NCBI GenBank assembly: GCA_965205865.1
Contig: CBDBHR010000030.1
Location: forward strand, 515,031-579,030
Direction: 5' to 3'
DNA from: a bacterium
GTDB taxonomy: Bacteria; SAR324; NAC60-12
DNA length: 64,000 nucleotides
The notes below the pieces were generated by a model, which was not told the DNA's origin, did no database searches, and was given only the letters and a program-made list of their open reading frames with translations. The position numbers and the translations under genes were made by a program. Of the stretch, positions 6,461-54,697 are shown piece by piece. Within the stretch, counting starts at the first letter, position 1, and each line of letters begins with the position of its first letter.

Positions 6461-6497
6461 CCCCCCTCCCCTAGCCCCTCCCTCCAGGGGAGGGGGA
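6461..6497. repeat. G/C-rich palindromic dispersed element (REP-like), family CCCCTCCCC...GGGGAGGGG.
   Basis: cccccctcccctagcccctccctccaggggaggggga. Nested inverted repeats; related copies at 16473, 33581, 40544, 41391 and 48383-48694. Confidence 0.8.
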
Positions 6498-17162: not shown

Positions 17163-18473
17163 ATGAGACGACTCGTCATATTGGCTGCAATTTTGATCTT
17201 TCTCTGCATTGCCGGTTATTTCATTTACATGAATAACCACAAAGTTCCTCTTGTACTGATGGGTTCTTATACACTTCATTTATCCTTGTGGCTCATCTTA
17301 TTCGCAGTGTTTCTTTTCGGCTGGTTACTGGCTTGGATCCATCAAGTTCTTTTTCATCCGGATCGCCTGTTTCAACGAATCAAAAACCGCCTGGCGCGTT
17401 TTCAAGACACCAAACGGGAGAAAAAGCGCCAGACCTATTTTGACGCTTCTCTACGCTATGATTTGAAAGCAATGCGAGCTACTTTCCGCAGTATGCGGCG
17501 TTCGGACAGGCTCCCTTTGCATATCAGAGCGCATTATTTGAAACAACAACGTTACCAACAATCCAGTGCTTCCTTGATGGAGGCTTTTCACCAACTCAAA
17601 CAACAATACACCGGCAATTTGCAGGTCCTGCTTCCCTATCAAAAACTGGCGCTGGAATTACAGGAATGGGGACTTGCGGAATTGCTCAGCCAGGAAATTC
17701 TGGATTTGGAAAAAGACCATCCCCGTGGCCTGGAAGGATTGCGGCAGATCCATCAACACCGGCAGGAGTGGGAAAAATGCGCGCAGCAGGAAGTCAAACT
17801 CCTCACCCGTTTCCCCCAAAGCATGGTTGCCGAGCTCTTGCTTTTCCAACATGAAATCCACTTGCTCAAAGGATACGAACAAAATCCCCGCTTGATTTCG
17901 CAAAAAAACTTGAACCATTTTCCGGGCAAAGCCTCCGCGTTCAAAGAATTTCATCAAGTCACGCTGGCGCTGGCGGAAGCGGAGCGAATGTGCCGCAGCC
18001 AACAATACGAACAAGCTGCCAGATTGCTCAAACGCAGCTATGAGAAAACTGCCGCCCCCGTCTTGTTGGATCGCTTGGAGTCCATATTTTACCAAACAGG
18101 GCAGAGTGAGAAAGTCTCGAGTATTTTGCGTGATCTCCAACTGTCTTCTTCAGCAACCCTCTACGTGGACTTGGTCCGGGCTCGCATTCATTATCGTTTG
18201 AATCAGTTCGACCAGGCCCGTTCCATATTGAGCAGATTGGCCACCCGGCACCCCAAGCCACCTGTCTTGTATCGCACTCTGGATTATCTGCTCGCGAAGC
18301 AAGAAAGTAATCAAGAGCAACTTATCGAAGCGGCGCAGTCGTTGATTCCGGCAGAAACCCTGCTGGCAAACCTCTATTCCTGCAAACAGTGCGGAGCAGT
18401 CGGTGATTGGCAATCCGTCTGTCAGCGTTGCAACCACGTATACAGCTACGTTCACCGTGATCACTTGACCTGA
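17163..18473 (+). CDS. lapB: LPS assembly protein LapB (YciM)-like TPR protein with a LapA-like two-TM N-terminus (apparent LapA-LapB fusion).
   Basis: Two N-terminal TM helices plus the WLLAWI..RIKNRLARFQ LapA-like region. TPR-like repeats. C-terminal rubredoxin-like CxxC..CxxC (CKQCGAVGDWQSVCQRCNH). Confidence 0.6.
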   Translation: MRRLVILAAILIFLCIAGYFIYMNNHKVPLVLMGSYTLHLSLWLILFAVFLFGWLLAWIHQVLFHPDRLFQRIKNRLARFQDTKREKKRQTYFDASLRYDLKAMRATFRSMRRSDRLPLHIRAHYLKQQRYQQSSASLMEAFHQLKQQYTGNLQVLLPYQKLALELQEWGLAELLSQEILDLEKDHPRGLEGLRQIHQHRQEWEKCAQQEVKLLTRFPQSMVAELLLFQHEIHLLKGYEQNPRLISQKNLNHFPGKASAFKEFHQVTLALAEAERMCRSQQYEQAARLLKRSYEKTAAPVLLDRLESIFYQTGQSEKVSSILRDLQLSSSATLYVDLVRARIHYRLNQFDQARSILSRLATRHPKPPVLYRTLDYLLAKQESNQEQLIEAAQSLIPAETLLANLYSCKQCGAVGDWQSVCQRCNHVYSYVHRDHLT

Positions 18474-47628: not shown

Positions 47629-47730
47629 CAAACAGTGGGCTTCCCGATTCACCTCTTCCTGCCGGGCTGTTTGCTCCTGTTTACCGGGAATATCCTGCTC
47701 CCGGTTGCAATTCCGGCGCTCATTCTTTTG

Positions 47731-47847
47731 TTGATTCCGCATCATTCATCCTTGCCTGGTAGGGGGAACCACATTGTTACGATGCCGGTGCCTGTTCATT
47801 TCTTGATTCCGCATCATTCATCCTTCCCTGGTAGGGGGGAACCACAT
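47731..47847. repeat. Two direct copies of a 44-45-bp repeat (47731-47774 and 47803-47847) separated by 28 bp.
   Basis: ttgattccgcatcattcatccttgcctggtagggggaaccacat and ttgattccgcatcattcatccttccctggtaggggggaaccacat. Confidence 0.85.
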
Positions 47848-48209: not shown

Positions 48210-48382
48210 CTTTTGTTTTAATAGAGGTAATGGTATTTGGGGTCATATTGCTCGGTGTCTTCTCGACCGCAGAGAGAGATCTTCAAGGGTCCTCCGGAAA
48301 CCGGGATTTCAATGTTTCTCTCTCCTCAGGTTTCGCTGGCTTGGACCAAATAGTCAATTCATACGAAGTTGCGCATATAAAG

Positions 48383-48694
48383 AATCCCCCTCCCTTGGAG
48401 GGAGGGGCCAGCACGGGAAAATCCCCCTCCCCTGGAGGGAGGGGCCAGGGGAGGGGGACAGCAGCCCAAAGAATCCCCCTCCACGCCAAGAATCCCCCTC
48501 CACGCCAAGAATCCCCCTCCACGCCAAGAATCCCCCTCCCTTGAAGGGAGGGGCCAGCACGGGAAAATCCCCCTCCCCTGGAGGGAGGGGCCAGGGGAGG
48601 GGGACAGCAGCCCAAAGAATCCCCCTCCACGCCAAGAATCCCCCTCCACGCCAAGAATCCCCCTCCCCTGGAGGGAGGGGCCAGGGGAGGGGGC
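48383..48694. repeat. Nested tandem array of REP-like palindromic elements.
   Basis: Higher-order unit: two palindromic cores (89 bp in total) plus 3 copies of aatccccctccacgccaag, then the same 89 bp plus 2 such copies, then one terminal palindrome. The two 89-bp blocks differ by a single substitution. Confidence 0.9.
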
Positions 48695-48823
48695 GCGAAG
48701 CTGGAAGATCCCCCCCGACGTCAAAAAATTCACTACTCGTCGGGTTGTCTTGATTATCCTAAAGATTTCAGTATTACTCATTGAATCACAACTATTTTTT
48801 ATTATTTTCCCTATTCCGGAGCC

Positions 48824-50872
48824 ATGAGATTTCAACTGTATTTTCGTCTTGTACTGCTGCTTTTTTGTTATTTTCTGGGAGCATGTTTCGTCTTTTTTCT
48901 TTTTCGTCTCAACTTTTTGATTCGTTTTGGAGATTTACATGAAATTTCAGTTCATTATAAATGGGACCTGTTCGAGTCTTTTTGGATGGGCGCCCGTTTC
49001 GACGCCAAGGTGCTGGCCATCTCACTGGCGCCTCTCTTTGTTTTATGCGCCTTGAGTCTGCCTTTTCCCAAGGTGAGTCGGAATCTCATATTCTTTTGCT
49101 GGCCCTGGCTTGTTTTACAGTCTTTGCTGCTTTATTTCTTGCTTTTTATAGACCAGCTTTATTACGGTTATTTTCAAAACCATATCGATATTCGCATTTT
49201 TGGTTTTATGGAAGACGATACCCGGGCCTTGCTGGACACTTTCTGGCAGGAATACCCTGTATTGCCTGTTCTTTCCCTTTTGTTATTGCTGTCTGTTCTG
49301 ACGGGCTGGCTGCTTTGGAAATTGCATGCGCGCCTGCGAAACAGAAAAGCGCCCGCCTGTTTTTCGGGGTCGGCAGCCCGCATCTCTTTTGTGATTTTTA
49401 CTTTGCTTTTCGTCAGTTTGGCGGCGCGCGGTTCGCTTGGCGTCTTTCCGCTCGCAAACCAGGAACGTGGCATCTCGGATCACCAGTTTCTGAATTTATT
49501 GGCGTATAACGGCATTTTTAGTTTTTATGATGCCTTCCAGCACCGGATAGAGAATCGATTTTCCACGGACATGGCACCTGTTTTAGCCAGGTATGAACAC
49601 AAAGACCTCCGGGAAGCGCTGCGCAACTATTACCAGCTTGCCAGCCCTCAGGCTCCTTTTCGAAGGTATATGTTCCGCAAGTCGGAGACCGCCTTCAGTG
49701 CTCCGGATAGGAAGTACCACGTCATTCTGATCATCATGGAAAGCTGGAGCGGATATTATTTTCGTTGGCATAACCCGAGCTTTCACCTGTTGGGTCGTCT
49801 GGAGAAGCATTGGGATTCGTTGCTCCATTTCCCATACTTTTTTTCTGCGGAAAATGGCACTATTCTCGGTCTCGAAAGCCTTCTCATAAGAAATTCGGGG
49901 TCAATTTTATCACAGACAAAGTATGCTTCGCACAGCTTCGACACTGCCATCACGCGTCCATTCCTGAAGGCCGGTTATGAAACGCACTTTATCAGCAGTG
50001 GTAAACTGGCATGGCGTAATCTCGATTTATTTTTGCCAATGCAAGGTTTTGAGAAGCTCAGTGGCCAGGTAAAATTAGAATCCTTGCGCAAGGATGAGAA
50101 TGCGCAAAATAACGTCTGGGGTGTTTTTGACGGGTATATGTTTGATTTTATGCTGGAAACCCTGCGCCAGGCTGAGAAACCTCAATTTATGGTAGCCCTG
50201 AGCATTACTCACCATCCGCCTTATAGAACGCCGGACGAGTACCAGGCTTCAGCGCTGCAAATCCCTCCCGCCCTGAGCGCAAAGCTCAAGACTGATAAGG
50301 ACACGGCTCGACGCGCCTTCCTTTCCTTTCAATACGCCAATGACGCTTTGGGTTATTTCCTGGAGCAGATCGAGCAAAGCAACTTGGCGAAAGAGACGCT
50401 GGTCGTCATGACGGGCGACCACAATACCTGGGGTCTGTTGGATTACGATCAGGAGAATCTGCATTGGAAATATGCGGTCCCCCTTCTTTTTTACCTTCCT
50501 CCGGAATTAAAAGAGAAGGTCTCTTTTGCGGACCACCAGCGCTTTGGTTCCCACGACGATATCTTTCCCACTCTGATGGCTCTGCTCTTTCCCGAAGAGG
50601 AATTTCTGCAAACAGGTTACAATCTTCTTGCTCCCCAAAGGCCGCCAAGTTTTGCAGTGAATGCCGCCGGATGGGCTCTGGACCCGCAAGGAGCCGTTTC
50701 CCTGACGGGTCAGCCTTTGTTTTATAAATGGAGCAGTCCCCAACGCCAGAAGCTGGTCAAAAGCGCTCCCCGGCCTGAACTCATGGAATTGAGAAAGAGG
50801 GCGCAGGCTCGTAAGGTAATTATGAATTATGCGTTGCGCGCCGATATTTCAGGAGAACAGGCAGGAAAATAA
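48824..50872 (+). CDS. LTA-synthase/sulfatase-family membrane protein (phosphoglycerol- or phosphoethanolamine-transferase-like; alkaline-phosphatase superfamily).
   Basis: Five N-terminal TM helices followed by a sulfatase domain (VILIIMESWSG..; TGDHN). 682 aa. Confidence 0.7.
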   Translation: MRFQLYFRLVLLLFCYFLGACFVFFLFRLNFLIRFGDLHEISVHYKWDLFESFWMGARFDAKVLAISLAPLFVLCALSLPFPKVSRNLIFFCWPWLVLQSLLLYFLLFIDQLYYGYFQNHIDIRIFGFMEDDTRALLDTFWQEYPVLPVLSLLLLLSVLTGWLLWKLHARLRNRKAPACFSGSAARISFVIFTLLFVSLAARGSLGVFPLANQERGISDHQFLNLLAYNGIFSFYDAFQHRIENRFSTDMAPVLARYEHKDLREALRNYYQLASPQAPFRRYMFRKSETAFSAPDRKYHVILIIMESWSGYYFRWHNPSFHLLGRLEKHWDSLLHFPYFFSAENGTILGLESLLIRNSGSILSQTKYASHSFDTAITRPFLKAGYETHFISSGKLAWRNLDLFLPMQGFEKLSGQVKLESLRKDENAQNNVWGVFDGYMFDFMLETLRQAEKPQFMVALSITHHPPYRTPDEYQASALQIPPALSAKLKTDKDTARRAFLSFQYANDALGYFLEQIEQSNLAKETLVVMTGDHNTWGLLDYDQENLHWKYAVPLLFYLPPELKEKVSFADHQRFGSHDDIFPTLMALLFPEEEFLQTGYNLLAPQRPPSFAVNAAGWALDPQGAVSLTGQPLFYKWSSPQRQKLVKSAPRPELMELRKRAQARKVIMNYALRADISGEQAGK

Positions 50873-50961
50873 ATGAGGCTGGCACGGAAGGGGTTGAGGT
50901 GAATAAGGTCTCGGAAGGAGACCATGACTCAGTCCTATGTCTTTTCTAACAATTAAATTCA

Positions 50962-50996
50962 AATATGCAAGCCTGACCCCTTTTTTGACCCCTTTT
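50962..50996. repeat. Left inverted repeat (IR-L) bracketing the three-gene cassette.
   Basis: aatatgcaagcctgacccc is a perfect 19-bp reverse complement of 53331-53349. Followed by a duplicated tgacccc(t)ttt motif. Confidence 0.85.
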
Positions 50997-51278
50997 CTCC
51001 AAGAGAAGAAAACTGAAAGATGAAAATATCCCACTTTTACCTTGATTAGTCTTCCAAAATACGAAAAAATCATGAAAAATTGTCCTTTACTCCCAGATTT
51101 CCAGTTGTTATCGTTTTCAGTGATTTTCTTATGTTGATGATTTTCAGATATTGTCTAGATGTCATCATCCTCAATGATTTTTATTTTCCTAAAATGTCAC
51201 CTCTTCCGGGTCTTGTAGTATCCGGAGGTTAGGGAACATACGGAGCTTGAAACACAAGAAATTCGGAGGAAAAACCCC

Positions 51279-52049
51279 ATGCGTCCGCATCGCCGTTACA
51301 AAAACCCACCCATAGAAGAGGCGCTTTGTGAATTTCGCTTCAAACCGGGACGGGACTGGGACCTCTTCATTCCAGGTAAACTCCATTCCAAAATCGATGA
51401 GGAATATGGTGGTAAGCCACGGGAACAAAAAGTTGTCGAGTTGGGATTGGAAGCCCAGGGAGGCAAGCCTCCCAATCTGAGATATGGTGAAGCGTTGTCA
51501 ATTATCCAACTGGTCACGAAGGATGGCAAAAGGATAGTTGGGGTTGGACCCGACATACTCAACGTTCACATGCTGCGTCCCTATCAAAATCCTCTTGATC
51601 CTGAACGCAGTGGATGGGACGAGTTCAAACCCCGGATTTCAGAAGCGCTCGATGCATACTGGAAGGTGGCTAAGCCAATTGGTGTATGTAGGATTGGTAT
51701 TCGGTACATAAACAAAATCCTCATACCACAGAAAACGGTAGAGGTCGAGGAATATCTCAAGTGTGCTTTGCCGGTTGTAAGAGGATTGCCAGATCGCCGG
51801 AAGCACTTTGTGAGCCGTGTTGATTATGACTATGGAGACGGTATGCGTCTGGGTTTGTCTCAGCGATCGATCAAGGCCCCTCCGGATCACATGGGTTTTC
51901 TGCTTGATCTTGACGTCATTTGGGAGAACTCCAAATCGCTTGCGCAGGACAAAGCATTGGAAAAAGTAGGTGACTTGCGCACTCGTGAAAGAGAAGCATT
52001 CGAAACTGTCATCACGGATAAAGCCAGGGAACTCTTCGATGCCGATTGA
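51279..52049 (+). CDS. Uncharacterized protein, TIGR04255-family-like, first gene of the three-gene operon.
   Basis: 256 aa; GGAGG RBS 8 nt upstream. N-terminal Y..PPIEEALCEFRF pattern recalled as typical of TIGR04255 proteins (from memory, not searched). Confidence 0.55.
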   Translation: MRPHRRYKNPPIEEALCEFRFKPGRDWDLFIPGKLHSKIDEEYGGKPREQKVVELGLEAQGGKPPNLRYGEALSIIQLVTKDGKRIVGVGPDILNVHMLRPYQNPLDPERSGWDEFKPRISEALDAYWKVAKPIGVCRIGIRYINKILIPQKTVEVEEYLKCALPVVRGLPDRRKHFVSRVDYDYGDGMRLGLSQRSIKAPPDHMGFLLDLDVIWENSKSLAQDKALEKVGDLRTREREAFETVITDKARELFDAD

Positions 52050-52761
52050 AAAATACGTACCTGCGCGTTCCAGAACCTCGACCTTTGATTCGGACACATT
52101 CTTTAAGATGGACGAATCGGGAGTGGCCTATGCCTCCCCGCATTGGCTCACCGAGGGAAAGGAATCGTTTGCGGCTTCTTTAGACGCCGAGACACCGCAA
52201 AAAGCGATGGCGGATCTGTTCGAACTATTCCCTGAGCAAACGACAGTGGTCCCGGATAGTACTTTATGGGTTGCGCTTATTTTTCCTGTACTCGTGGATG
52301 CAGCCTGCTTCGAACCGGCAGTCTCGCAACAGGCGCCTGTTGAAGGTCGAGAACAAAAACTGCTTGCGGCCAAACTGTGGACGTCCTTTGAAGCCGACAC
52401 CCTTGAAGACGGAATGGAACATCCAGCCGAGCAGATTATTGGAAAGGCGTTGCGATCCGAGGAAGAACTGCGCGTTCTTGAATGGTTCAGGGCTTTTGCT
52501 TTGGATGCTGAACGGCCGAGCTTTGCGGCATCGGTTCTGCGTTGCCTGGGACGTCAAATGCATCCGGGGACGGATTCATGGCGTGTTGAACTCGTGCGTG
52601 ACGCGCTGGCCATGGATGATGTGGAGATCAGGGACGCAGCCGCACAAGCAGCTGAATCGTGGGGTGGCCGGGATCTGATCGAGGTTCTAACGTCTCATCG
52701 TGAGCCGGAACCTTGGCTTCGAGACTACATTCGGGACATCATTGATGACCTGAGGGAGTAG
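52039..52761 (+). CDS. Uncharacterized acidic protein (possible helical-repeat fold), second gene of the three-gene operon.
   Basis: ATG overlaps the upstream stop by 11 nt (translational coupling). 240 aa; no recognizable catalytic motif. Confidence 0.5.
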   Translation: MPIEKYVPARSRTSTFDSDTFFKMDESGVAYASPHWLTEGKESFAASLDAETPQKAMADLFELFPEQTTVVPDSTLWVALIFPVLVDAACFEPAVSQQAPVEGREQKLLAAKLWTSFEADTLEDGMEHPAEQIIGKALRSEEELRVLEWFRAFALDAERPSFAASVLRCLGRQMHPGTDSWRVELVRDALAMDDVEIRDAAAQAAESWGGRDLIEVLTSHREPEPWLRDYIRDIIDDLRE

Positions 52762-52764
52762 GGG

Positions 52765-53280
52765 ATGTTCCTGGCACGCAAGATTACACGCGCCAAGTGG
52801 CGCCCCAAGGAGGAATTGTCGGTGGAAGAAATTCCGGCCGATGCGGTGACTGTTGATCTGAGGACACAGGAAAACTCGTTGTCTTTCTGGCAGTGTAGCA
52901 TCGGGGAAGAGGCCGAAGTCGAAGAGGTGGCGCTGGCGATAGCCGCCGCAGGTGAACGTATCGATAAGCTCGACATCGTTTGGTTTTCCGATGACGAGCT
53001 GCGGGCTGACAGCCAACAGTGGAAAAAAACCGACGGACGAACACCCGTTGCAGAGTTGGTCAGGCGACATGTCGATGTGTATCGTCTCGACTACGTGCGC
53101 CTCGGAAAAGTCGCTTCTCGTATCGCTACTGCAATAAAAGAGAGCCGATTCCGGCGGCTATCGAAGAAGCGTGTTACAGATCTCCTTGCGACAGCAGTCG
53201 AACAAGAACGTGTCAAACTGGACGACCTTGATAGTCGTGTCCATACAGAGGTGCGTGAGTCGCTCGGGGTAGAGAGATGA
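52765..53280 (+). CDS. Uncharacterized protein, third gene of the three-gene operon.
   Basis: ATG 4 nt after the upstream stop, with a GGGAG RBS. 171 aa; no recognizable motif. Confidence 0.5.
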   Translation: MFLARKITRAKWRPKEELSVEEIPADAVTVDLRTQENSLSFWQCSIGEEAEVEEVALAIAAAGERIDKLDIVWFSDDELRADSQQWKKTDGRTPVAELVRRHVDVYRLDYVRLGKVASRIATAIKESRFRRLSKKRVTDLLATAVEQERVKLDDLDSRVHTEVRESLGVER

Positions 53281-53308
53281 TCCATGCACTGCTAATGGTT
53301 GTACGAAT

Positions 53309-53350
53309 TGAAATGGGGTCAGGCTGAAATGGGGTCAGGCTTGCATATTG
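53309..53350. repeat. Right inverted repeat (IR-R) of the cassette, with internal tandem duplication of gaaatggggtcaggct.
   Basis: ggggtcaggcttgcatatt (53331-53349) is a perfect reverse complement of IR-L. The 16-mer is duplicated at 53309-53324 and 53325-53340. Confidence 0.85.
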
Positions 53351-53532
53351 GTATTTGGGAATTGTCTCGAGTGCAGGAGTTCTTCAGCCAACCTTGGATC
53401 GACTCTCGTCTGGGTTTCCAAGGCAATGCGTTGTCGGCTCAACGAGGAAAGGTCTCTTTGATAATACTGAGCCTCCTCCTCTAAGAGCCCGCCCTTTTCC
53501 GTATAAAAGAGCGTCATCCTTCCTCATATATA

Positions 53533-53556
53533 AATATGCAAGCATGACCACATTTT
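53533..53556. repeat. Third, diverged copy of the IR sequence in IR-L orientation, just downstream of the wecA-like gene.
   Basis: aatatgcaagcatgaccacatttt vs IR-L aatatgcaagcctgacccctttt. Confidence 0.6.
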
Positions 53557-53572
53557 CGTCCGGGGTTTTTTT

Positions 53573-54697
53573 CTAATGTTGACGTCCCCGGAATCTTCTC
53601 GCCAGTCTTTTGGGGATTCGCAGAATAGGATGGCGACGCAGCAATGCCACTCGTCGGTAAACCATGAAGTATAGAATGAACTGCAACACGAATGCCAGCA
53701 TTGCCCATTCCCGGGTGTGTGGAATAAATACGGCGAAAACCAGACTGCTCATTGTTCCTCCCCAGAGCAGCACGCTGGTGATGGCATTGGCGAGCTTTTC
53801 GTTTTTCAGCGATTTTGCAATCTTGCGGGCATAGGTCCGGTAGACCAACATATGCAGGTGTACTTTATCCGGTCTGGTGGGTCGATGGCGCTTACGGATC
53901 GTTTTTCGAATAATCGAATGAACGATTTCCAGCAGCGGATATGCCAGGATCATGATGCTGACCCATTCCGATATTTCCGGATTTCGTACGGGAAGCATGA
54001 CCGCCAGGGCGCCAAGCAGGAAACCCGCGAAATAGGCTCCTCCATCTCCCAGAAAAATGTATCCCCAGGGAAAATTCACCAAGAGGAACCCCAACAGAAC
54101 TGCGACGATAATGGCCGCCAACAAGACCAATTCGTAATCATCCACCATATAGGCCACAACTCCGAACGCCGAAGCCATGATGATCACGGCTCCCGCGGCC
54201 AGGCCGTTAAAACCATCGATGACGTTGATGGCGTTAGTCAGACCGCTTATTGCGAGAGCGGTGAATACGAGTGAGACGAAATGCCGCTCGATGAGATCGT
54301 CGACCAGATAGACTTCCGTTTGGGTCACCGAGTATCCGGTCATCACGCAGAAAAGCAGACCCGAAATTATCGTTGCCAGCAGGCGCAAGACGACCGGCGC
54401 TCTTTTGGTCAAATCTTCCATCAGACCCGCAAGGAAAGCCGGGCTGCCACTCATGCCAAGCACGATCAACAGACTTTGCGTTGGTTGGGAAGTCGCCATC
54501 ACGACCATCCAGAATCCGACGAACAGGGTCAGCCCGCCGATCCTCGGTGTCGGCTTATCGTGAAACTTCTGGGGTCCCGTGAAGGTATCGAAGGTAAGAG
54601 AACCATGCCAGCGCTTGCTGAGCACGATCAGAACGCTGCCGAGTAAGGAGACAAAAAAACCGCTCGATAGCGGCCATAATTCTGAAAGAGCAAACAT
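53573..54697 (-). CDS. wecA: Undecaprenyl-phosphate N-acetylhexosamine-1-phosphate transferase (WecA/WbpL/MraY family, GT4 polyprenyl-phosphate transferase).
   Basis: Polytopic membrane protein with NAINVIDGFNGLAAG and other MraY/WecA motifs. 374 aa. Confidence 0.8.
   Translation of the reverse strand: MFALSELWPLSSGFFVSLLGSVLIVLSKRWHGSLTFDTFTGPQKFHDKPTPRIGGLTLFVGFWMVVMATSQPTQSLLIVLGMSGSPAFLAGLMEDLTKRAPVVLRLLATIISGLLFCVMTGYSVTQTEVYLVDDLIERHFVSLVFTALAISGLTNAINVIDGFNGLAAGAVIIMASAFGVVAYMVDDYELVLLAAIIVAVLLGFLLVNFPWGYIFLGDGGAYFAGFLLGALAVMLPVRNPEISEWVSIMILAYPLLEIVHSIIRKTIRKRHRPTRPDKVHLHMLVYRTYARKIAKSLKNEKLANAITSVLLWGGTMSSLVFAVFIPHTREWAMLAFVLQFILYFMVYRRVALLRRHPILRIPKRLARRFRGRQH

Follow-up and report, generated by a model that had tools for sequence, protein, structure and literature searches.

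Inverted repeats beside a wecA-like gene of a SAR324-like bacterium are very probably the remains of decayed TIRtrons

Introduction

The available portions of Di Nocera (2013; BMC Genomics 14:522, PMC3733652) describe TIRtrons as RAYT-like genes with long terminal inverted repeats (TIRs), and name their products TIRYTs (TIR-associated tyrosine transposases). According to the same portions, TIRtron TIRs share the tip motif GGGGWSAS, may reach into the gene at either its 5′ or its 3′ end, and form 'moderately abundant' repeat families whose members occur singly, as dimers or in groups (PMC3733652). Most TIRYTs fall into subclass 2.1 of the TnpA-REP-like proteins, of which subgroup 2.1.2 has a DnaA_C-like tail (Quentin, 2018; PMC6006769), and subclass 2.1 corresponds to RAYT Group 1 (Bertels, 2017; PMC5581495). 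Experimental characterisation of the TIRYT family was not found in the literature.

Two other kinds of short repeated DNA are relevant here. A REP or REPIN unit is an imperfect palindrome tagged by GTAG (or CGTC), and a MITE is a short (70–300 bp) TIR-bounded element without a functional transposase. Target-site duplications are not expected for Y1/HUH elements (IS200/IS605).

We analyzed a 64-kb stretch of DNA (the window, in its whole length) whose LepA is ~80% identical to LepA of SAR324-cluster metagenome-assembled genomes. An initial annotation of this DNA had drawn attention to a pair of inverted repeats (IR-L and IR-R) around a gene cassette, and to a third copy that, together with IR-R, delimits a small unit next to a wecA-like gene.

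Results

Three copies of one repeat and a tandem duplication

The 18-mer ATATGCAAGCCTGACCCC is found exactly at 50963–50980 on the plus strand (IR-L) and at 53331–53348 on the minus strand (IR-R), and with two mismatches at 53534–53551 on the plus strand. Three matches compare with 0.06 expected, and none of 100 shuffled sequences gave three; no further copy was detected in the 64-kb window. The diverged third copy proposed initially was therefore real, and 17 nt separate its end from the wecA-like stop codon (53573–53575). The arms 50955–50984 and 53327–53356 are 90% complementary over 30 nt. The arms 53327–53357 and 53525–53555 are 84% complementary over 31 nt and are spaced by 167 nt, and only one TIR doublet is present within the 64-kb window.

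Beside IR-R, the 16-nt unit TGAAATGGGGTCAGGC is present as exact head-to-tail copies at 53309–53324 and 53325–53340. The tandem duplication reported earlier was thus confirmed, with the string given at that time shifted in register by one base: gaaatggggtcaggct is the same 16-nt repeat read at 53310–53325 and 53326–53341.

The 19-mer AATATGCAAGCCTGACCCC, which forms the core of the repeat, is not self-complementary and has no GTAG tag, so it is not a REP or REPIN unit. An Rfam search of 50500–54000 in E-value mode gave no match, and a literature search with the motif string gave no relevant match.

Other repeats were observed in the window. A separate REP-like family is based on the 21-nt palindrome CCCCTCCCYTGRAGGGAGGGG, with 10 sites compared with 0 expected. 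Five copies are clustered upstream of a sulfatase gene (48380–48700), where 19-nt tandem units AAGAATCCCCCTCCACGCC and a higher-order duplication of 146 nt are interspersed among them, and others are at 6475, 16473, 33584, 40558 and 41393; the repeat around this palindrome is also found elsewhere in the related assembly L081. Downstream of an SprT-like gene (47704–47838), a 63-nt direct repeat is present in two copies of 84% identity, 72 nt apart.

The repeat corresponds to the TIR of TIRtrons

On sequence grounds, the repeat is the terminal inverted repeat of TIRtrons. The tip of IR-L and IR-R, GGGGTCAG, fits GGGGWSAS, and the tip of the third copy, GTGGTCAT, is a decayed form of it. When the 19-mer was scanned against 185,579 species genomes, matches were obtained in nine contigs from very different phyla. 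Three of them (L001, L005 and L009) lacked any TIRYT context and were taken as chance matches, of which ~4 were expected by estimate; the match in L009 sits within an unrelated ORF.

A gene whose product starts with MARKPR(I/L)H follows shortly after the motif in L004 (Deltaproteobacteria) and in L007 (Muproteobacteria). On the TIRYT gene strand the upstream motif reads GGGGTCAGGCTTGCATATT, and an inverted second copy at the 3′ end of the gene reads ATG CAA GCC TGA CCCC (M Q A stop). Both proteins contain Y1_Tnp (PF01797) and Bac_DnaA_C (PF08299), and match the NCBIfam model 'REP-associated tyrosine transposase' slightly under its cut-off. The exact 19-mer flanks full-length TIRYT genes in L004, L007, L032, L046 and L064, and the downstream TIR of full-length genes overlaps the stop codon, reading CAAGCCTGA followed by CCCC.

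Among 8000 candidates scored, 7244 proteins were TIRYT homologues at E ≤ 1e-10, and the full-length relatives have ~310 aa. Both domains were present in all of the best 120 homologues, and 67 of these 120 end in QA; the family C-terminal ending is N[AT]I[MT]QA followed by the stop. In the full-length loci L014, L015, L018 and L019, the upstream TIR is 45–95 nt before the ATG, and element-specific sequence lengthens each inverted repeat to ~25–30 nt. The downstream TIR extends over the stop codon in L014, L015 and L019 and begins just past it in L018. In most full-length loci examined, as in the window, the downstream TIR codes for the final QA and the stop.

The presence of the same 19-mer at the flanks of Y1 (TIRYT) genes in several phyla agrees with the initial proposal that the repeat forms the ends of a family of mobile elements rather than a terminator. 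A cognate full-length transposase with the same termini, suggested as a check at that time, was found in other phyla (e.g., L004 and L007). A six-frame profile search revealed no intact TIRYT gene within the 64-kb window. Because no intact Y1 gene lies between the TIRs, the window holds TIRtron relics and no functional member.

The unit next to the wecA-like gene is a probable internally deleted TIRtron

The segment 53309–53556, read on the minus strand and here called element B, is very probably an internally deleted TIRtron, that is, a fossil and neither a terminator nor an active miniature transposon. Its order is upstream TIR, 7 nt, ATG with 60 codons, downstream TIR and an extra 16 nt. 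The upstream TIR (53525–53556, minus strand), which is the third copy of the repeat, has the same geometry as the upstream TIRs of full-length TIRYT genes; its core (53534–53551) reads GTGGTCATGCTTGCATAT on the minus strand, with two mismatches to the consensus GGGGTCAGGCTTGCATAT. The 60-codon ORF (53335–53517, minus strand; product MTLFYTEKGG...FPNTNMQA) is a putative pseudogene remnant of the DnaA_C-like HTH tail at the TIRYT C-terminus, and its ending NTNMQA agrees with that of the family. The downstream TIR (IR-R; 53325–53357, minus strand, 19-mer core at 53331–53349) codes for the final N-M-Q-A and the TGA stop (53335–53337). The extra tandem copy of its outermost 16 nt (53309–53324, minus strand) consists of the tip AGCCTGACCCC and the 5-nt flank ATTTC. 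Missing are ~255 N-terminal codons, including the entire HUH/Y1 domain.

A TIRYT profile built from ~100 homologues was searched against 2069 six-frame segments of the window. The best match was at 53338–53523 (minus strand, E = 0.032, HMM positions 265–305 of 312), and the second best at 50830–50928 (minus strand, E = 0.15, HMM positions 119–133); both adjoin a TIR and are on the strand predicted from TIR orientation. The weak direct score of the ORF is backed by two intermediates, P0243 and P0245 (transitive homology). These are longer remnants, 73 and 53% identical to the ORF, and they match the profile with E = 4e-9 and 5e-16, respectively, over HMM positions 199–308. The proposed identities of the remnants are drawn from transitive homology together with position, the direct scores (E = 0.032 and 0.15) being weak when taken alone.

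An exhaustive search of 1.84 billion representative proteins with the 60-codon ORF gave ten matches, nine of which are short ORFs (34–174 aa). The weakest of the ten, P0250, has 894 aa (E = 1.9e-4, no aligned stretch reported), and no close full-length parent of the ORF was found in this set. Nonsynonymous changes predominate between the ORF and its relatives (9:2, 4:1 and 16:2), as expected for a pseudogene. The ORF interior has no indels relative to these relatives, which is slightly unexpected for a long-dead pseudogene. A functional small protein of 60 aa was considered and disfavored, given the mostly nonsynonymous changes and neighboring alleles that are read through or truncated. Of the earlier description of an IR-bounded, non-coding unit of ~230 bp, the IR-bounded part holds, with the GGGG tips pointing outward, but the unit does contain the 60-codon ORF. 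Since this ORF appears to be a pseudogene remnant, the unit probably has no functional coding capacity.

The arms of element B are predicted to form a long hairpin (z = −3.5 for RNA and −4.7 for DNA). An intrinsic terminator was nevertheless rejected: a terminator scan reported nothing in 53300–53570, and the repeat copies lie 2.3 kb apart and are found beside transposase genes elsewhere. Nothing points to a present function of the unit in the window; no terminator was called there, and in close relatives the unit is missing or rearranged.

A probable second remnant lies on the other side of the cassette

IR-L is, judging from the leader next to it, the upstream end of a second and more truncated minus-strand TIRtron remnant, element A. 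This upstream-type TIR (50962–50997, minus strand, core 50962–50980) is 92% identical over 37 nt to the TIR and outer flank in L004/L059, and its tip unit TGACCCCTTTT is reiterated at 50974–50984 and 50986–50996. The adjoining segment (50880–50961, minus strand) is homologous to the TIR-to-ATG leader of L020 (BLAST, 77% over 82 nt) and is a putative leader remnant. L020, the P0243 locus, is a ~470-bp internally deleted TIRtron in an unrelated context; it retains both TIRs, and its N-terminus MARKPRIHYSDTVYHAMLRG (MARKPRIHY..) is joined to HMM positions 219–307. Its leader aligns with 50980–50880 of the window (minus strand), and because this alignment lies beside IR-L we take IR-L to be the upstream TIR of a second minus-strand copy.

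Within the second profile match, LIHLNPFRA (50881–50907) aligns to the catalytic Y-motif region (yihlnPvra), and these 9 residues are a possible fragment of that region. Element A breaks off at the sulfatase stop codon, and no distal TIR was found left of 50880. The segment is specific to the window, the similarity of the relatives ending at 50874/50879.

Between the two remnants, and part of neither, is a three-gene cassette (51279–53280, plus strand) encoding a TIGR04255-family protein, a weakly HEAT-like protein and an unknown protein. In every intact element and doublet the GGGG tips point outward. The tips of IR-L and IR-R both face the cassette, which places it outside both elements rather than within one. 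The two repeats had been read at first as the bounds of a single cassette element; they belong instead to two separate remnants, and a composite transposon or IR-bounded cassette is ruled out by the tip orientation. A single TIRtron split by insertion of the cassette was also rejected: on the minus strand the C-terminal remnant precedes the leader remnant, and therefore two copies in tandem orientation are present.

The cassette is absent from all related assemblies and was found nowhere else. PADLOC defense-system models gave no match to the three cassette proteins, and Pfam gave a weak HEAT match alone. An integration site at a tRNA gene was discarded, since the only tRNAs of the window are at ~26.5 kb.

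Inward-facing TIR pairs 5 kb apart, with the same geometry as IR-L and IR-R, were seen in L006 (Acidobacteriota; positions 1740/6793) and in the metagenome contigs L043 (2250/7295) and L052 (1923/6968). The L006 pair brackets two large genes (781 and 736 aa), and ~60 nt of similar sequence are present outside each TIR.

Element B is probably an old resident that has decayed differently among sister strains

Six related assemblies were recovered (L010, L011, L012, L013, L080 and L081), and the flanking genes of these sister strains have 90–99% nucleotide identity. An orthologue of the upstream TIR is found at the wecA-like junction in four of them: intact in L012 and L013, with one mismatch in L080, and present in L081. 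In L081 the wecA-side TIR is followed by another small IR-bounded element, and a longer TIRYT remnant (HMM positions 216–305, E = 2e-7); next come a diverged downstream TIR, in which the 16-mer unit is single, and a HipA cassette. L080 retains the upstream TIR and a remnant; its downstream TIR is deleted, and 525 nt without a cassette lead to the sulfatase gene. In L012 and L013 the intact TIR is followed by the same 104 nt of the interior in inverted orientation and then by unrelated DNA, which in L013 includes PemK. L010 and L011 have no TIR beside wecA and carry unrelated DNA in the place of the element, so no clean empty site was found among the relatives. L010 does have, 2 kb away, a decayed trace that includes one AGCCTGACCCCATTTC unit and shares its outer flank with the window. 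The DNA specific to the window extends from ~50875 to 53345.

Because the sister strains hold the same junction in differing states of decay, element B is considered old and vertically inherited at this position. It has undergone lineage-specific decay, and its interior was inverted at least once. The earlier reading of a repeated insertion or MITE at a hotspot therefore gives way to that of an old resident fossil. Deletion end points also vary from locus to locus: L020 has ~470 bp and L012 has 104 nt, and the L081 remnant is longer than that of the window.

The relics of elements A and B border a hypervariable spot on both sides. This spot, between the sulfatase-like gene and the wecA-like one (50875–53565 in the window, and its orthologues in L010–L013, L080 and L081), is a hotspot of cassette turnover. 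In the window it contains TIGR04255 and two ORFs, in L081 HipA_C, in L013 PemK, and in L010 and L011 small ORFs; L080 has almost nothing there.

Another IR-bounded MITE-like element of ~230 bp, with ends AACCTGAGTTCGA[CG]ATAA..., was noted in L080 (16201–16430) and L081 (~16016 onwards, and 18155–18425). It abuts the sulfatase stop in both assemblies, is also found between the TIRYT remnant and the wecA-side TIR in L081, and is absent from the window.

Gene-less doublets and tip duplications in the TIRtron family

A second scan with the 19-mer, against metagenomes, yielded 58 loci, which were classed by profile and TIR search. In ~11 of them the TIR adjoins a full or partial TIRYT gene. Gene-less doublets with tips outward and 29–99 nt between the 19-nt arms accounted for 22 loci, and the remaining matches were solo TIRs. 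A uniform 125-bp gene-less doublet was present in at least six flanking contexts (L023–L063; Ga0209324, Ga0209641, Ga0209342 and others); its outer flanks are conserved and asymmetric (AAAACTC-GGGG...ACCCT-ATTCCTG, hyphens marking the borders), with no target duplication. Because it recurs in these contexts, the TIRtron family does make true miniature elements. The 125-bp doublet is a bona fide miniature element family derived from TIRtrons, and the unit in the window is not among such forms.

The term 'MITE-like' used for the unit initially is therefore apt in part: with 248 bp (53309–53556), 31-nt arms and no catalytic domain the unit has the size and TIRs of a MITE, and gene-less TIR doublets exist elsewhere, but the unit itself is an apparent internally deleted element that keeps 60 codons. 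The target-site duplication looked for at its outer borders was not seen, as the flanks (..ACGAATT before and GTCCGGG.. after the element) contain no direct repeat. At L008 (1140–1290) a solo TIR lies between two ~30-nt direct repeats (GCTTTTTGATTTTCTG.GA..GCCAGC), which could be a duplicated target or reflect insertion into a repeat.

The 16-mer duplication is private to the window, a single unit being present in L010, L081, L012 and L013. Of 102 distinct TIR ends, 10 carried an exact tandem duplication of the TIR tip with 4–9 nt of flank, whereas 21 of 5000 random 52-mers from the same DNA had such a duplication. Duplications of the terminal 9–17 nt thus affect ~10% of the examined TIR ends across phyla, ~23 times the background; L030 and L035, which share one tip duplication, are one locus in two assemblies. 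In the initial annotation, absence from independent assemblies had been taken as a sign of an assembly artefact. The duplication is indeed absent from all related assemblies, but comparable tip duplications recur in the family, which argues against an artefact. The 16-mer duplication fits a recurrent trait of the family.

Discussion

An intact TIRtron consists of a TIRYT gene, encoding HUH/Y1 and a DnaA_C-like HTH tail, between inverted repeats of ~25–35 nt with the tip GGGGWSAS. Its upstream TIR lies 45–95 nt ahead of the ATG, and its downstream TIR in most cases covers the last codons and the stop. By analogy with IS200/IS605 and RAYT, the TIRYT protein may act on the TIRs: in intact elements the Y1/HUH protein would work close to the tip, on TIR DNA in single-stranded form, and its HTH tail would aid recognition. 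The upstream TIR overlaps a TTGCAT hexamer, a candidate −35 box. On the favored reading, element B has lost ~255 codons and is left with the upstream TIR, the last 60 codons and the downstream TIR with its extra 16 nt, and elements A and B are two non-autonomous same-strand relics that flank the spot now holding the TIGR04255 cassette. The tip duplication may be the footprint of TIRYT nicking, or of tip slippage, before decay set in.

A bolder reading, which we offer as a speculation and regard as rather unlikely, is that the TIR tips are, or formerly were, active recombination substrates. It is prompted by the tip duplications, by the interior that is inverted between sister strains and by the relics at the edges of cassette exchange (TIGR04255, HipA and PemK). 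If true, TIRYT would nick at a fixed distance outside GGGG, leading to local duplication, inversion and cassette exchange, and the near-invariant 19-mer, which also provides the final codons of the gene, would be the TIRYT recognition site.

Other explanations of the unit were weighed against that of a decayed TIRtron. An active non-autonomous MITE, i.e., a REPIN-like doublet mobilized in trans by a TIRYT encoded elsewhere and inserted repeatedly at a hotspot, is improbable. The location of the unit at the orthologous position in five related assemblies, its lineage-specific deletions, the differing deletion end points of the relatives and the two mismatches in the upstream TIR core speak against it, as do the lack of target-site duplications, of an intact TIRYT in the 64-kb window and of a close full-length parent among the 1.84 billion representative proteins. 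In its favor are the abundance of gene-less, tips-outward doublets in metagenomes (22 of 58 loci) with a 125-bp form in at least six contexts, the long predicted hairpin, and the position of the unit between convergent genes, a frequent setting of REPs and MITEs. The hairpin and this location could also be taken to mean that the relic was co-opted, either as an RNA hairpin that terminates or stabilizes the convergent transcripts or as an invertible switch, and we judge this very unlikely. L012 has a hairpin with a T-run directly outside the TIR (GCCCCCACGTCCGGGGCTTTTTTT), but half of it is deleted in the window, where the scan of 53300–53570 called no terminator, and close relatives do without the unit or have it rearranged (L010 and L011 having no TIR beside wecA). 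The same 104 nt are in opposite orientation among sister strains (L012 and L013), as a switch would predict; however, there is no adjacent recombinase gene, and different sequence follows the inversion, which looks like a single past event.

It is still harder to believe that IR-L and IR-R are the ends of one mobile three-gene cassette, with the 230-bp unit as a by-product. Their arms, 90% complementary over 30 nt, enclose precisely the strain-specific DNA, and a similar plus/minus TIR pair 5 kb apart surrounds two genes in L006, L043 and L052. However, the tips point inward, whereas every intact element and doublet has them outward; IR-R forms one stretch with the remnant gene and is ancestral, as L081 has it but lacks this cassette; and there is neither a distal TIR left of 50880 nor another copy of the cassette.

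Reading the repeats as the ends of two decayed TIRtrons removes a false lead, since the IR pair around the cassette would be neither a transposon boundary nor a terminator. It also contributes data on a very large family: (i) different phyla have an identical TIR core, which also supplies C-terminal codons; (ii) there are true families of gene-less doublets; and (iii) the tips are prone to tandem duplication. The TIR with 4–9 nt of flank provides concrete substrates for a first biochemical assay of TIRYT. The invariance of the 19-mer across phyla, the enrichment of tip duplications and the link between relics and a cassette spot were not found in the available portions of PMC3733652, PMC6006769 and PMC5581495.

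Compared with bacterial MITEs, the unit is alike in its length of ~230–250 bp, its ~30-nt TIRs, the internal transposase deletion and the intergenic site. Unlike them, it has no target-site duplication and no evidence of amplification of the deletion form, and it occupies an orthologous position in sister strains with varied decay. In REPIN-RAYT systems (Bertels and Rainey, 2011), pairs of inverted short repeats with a spacer likewise form hairpins, and the repeats are tied to a single-copy Y1 transposase gene that they flank, as here; gene-less doublets are also common to both families. In contrast to REPINs, the TIR is not itself palindromic and has no GTAG tag. The doublet of the window also differs from the gene-less doublets of the TIRtron family, as it keeps coding remnants and has a spacer of 167 nt rather than 29–99 nt.

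RAYT Group 1 (subclass 2.1) combines Y1_Tnp with a Bac_DnaA_C-like HTH, a wide and patchy taxonomy and no classical REPs nearby. Unlike Group 1 and subgroup 2.1.2, the window has no catalytic domain, so that only the ancestor of the remnants can be counted as a member. The locus differs from TIRtrons, as presented in the available portions of Di Nocera (2013), in that element B retains 60 codons of the transposase gene and element A a leader fragment, and in its host, a SAR324-like bacterium; the window shares with them the GGGGWSAS tip and a downstream TIR that runs across the stop codon.
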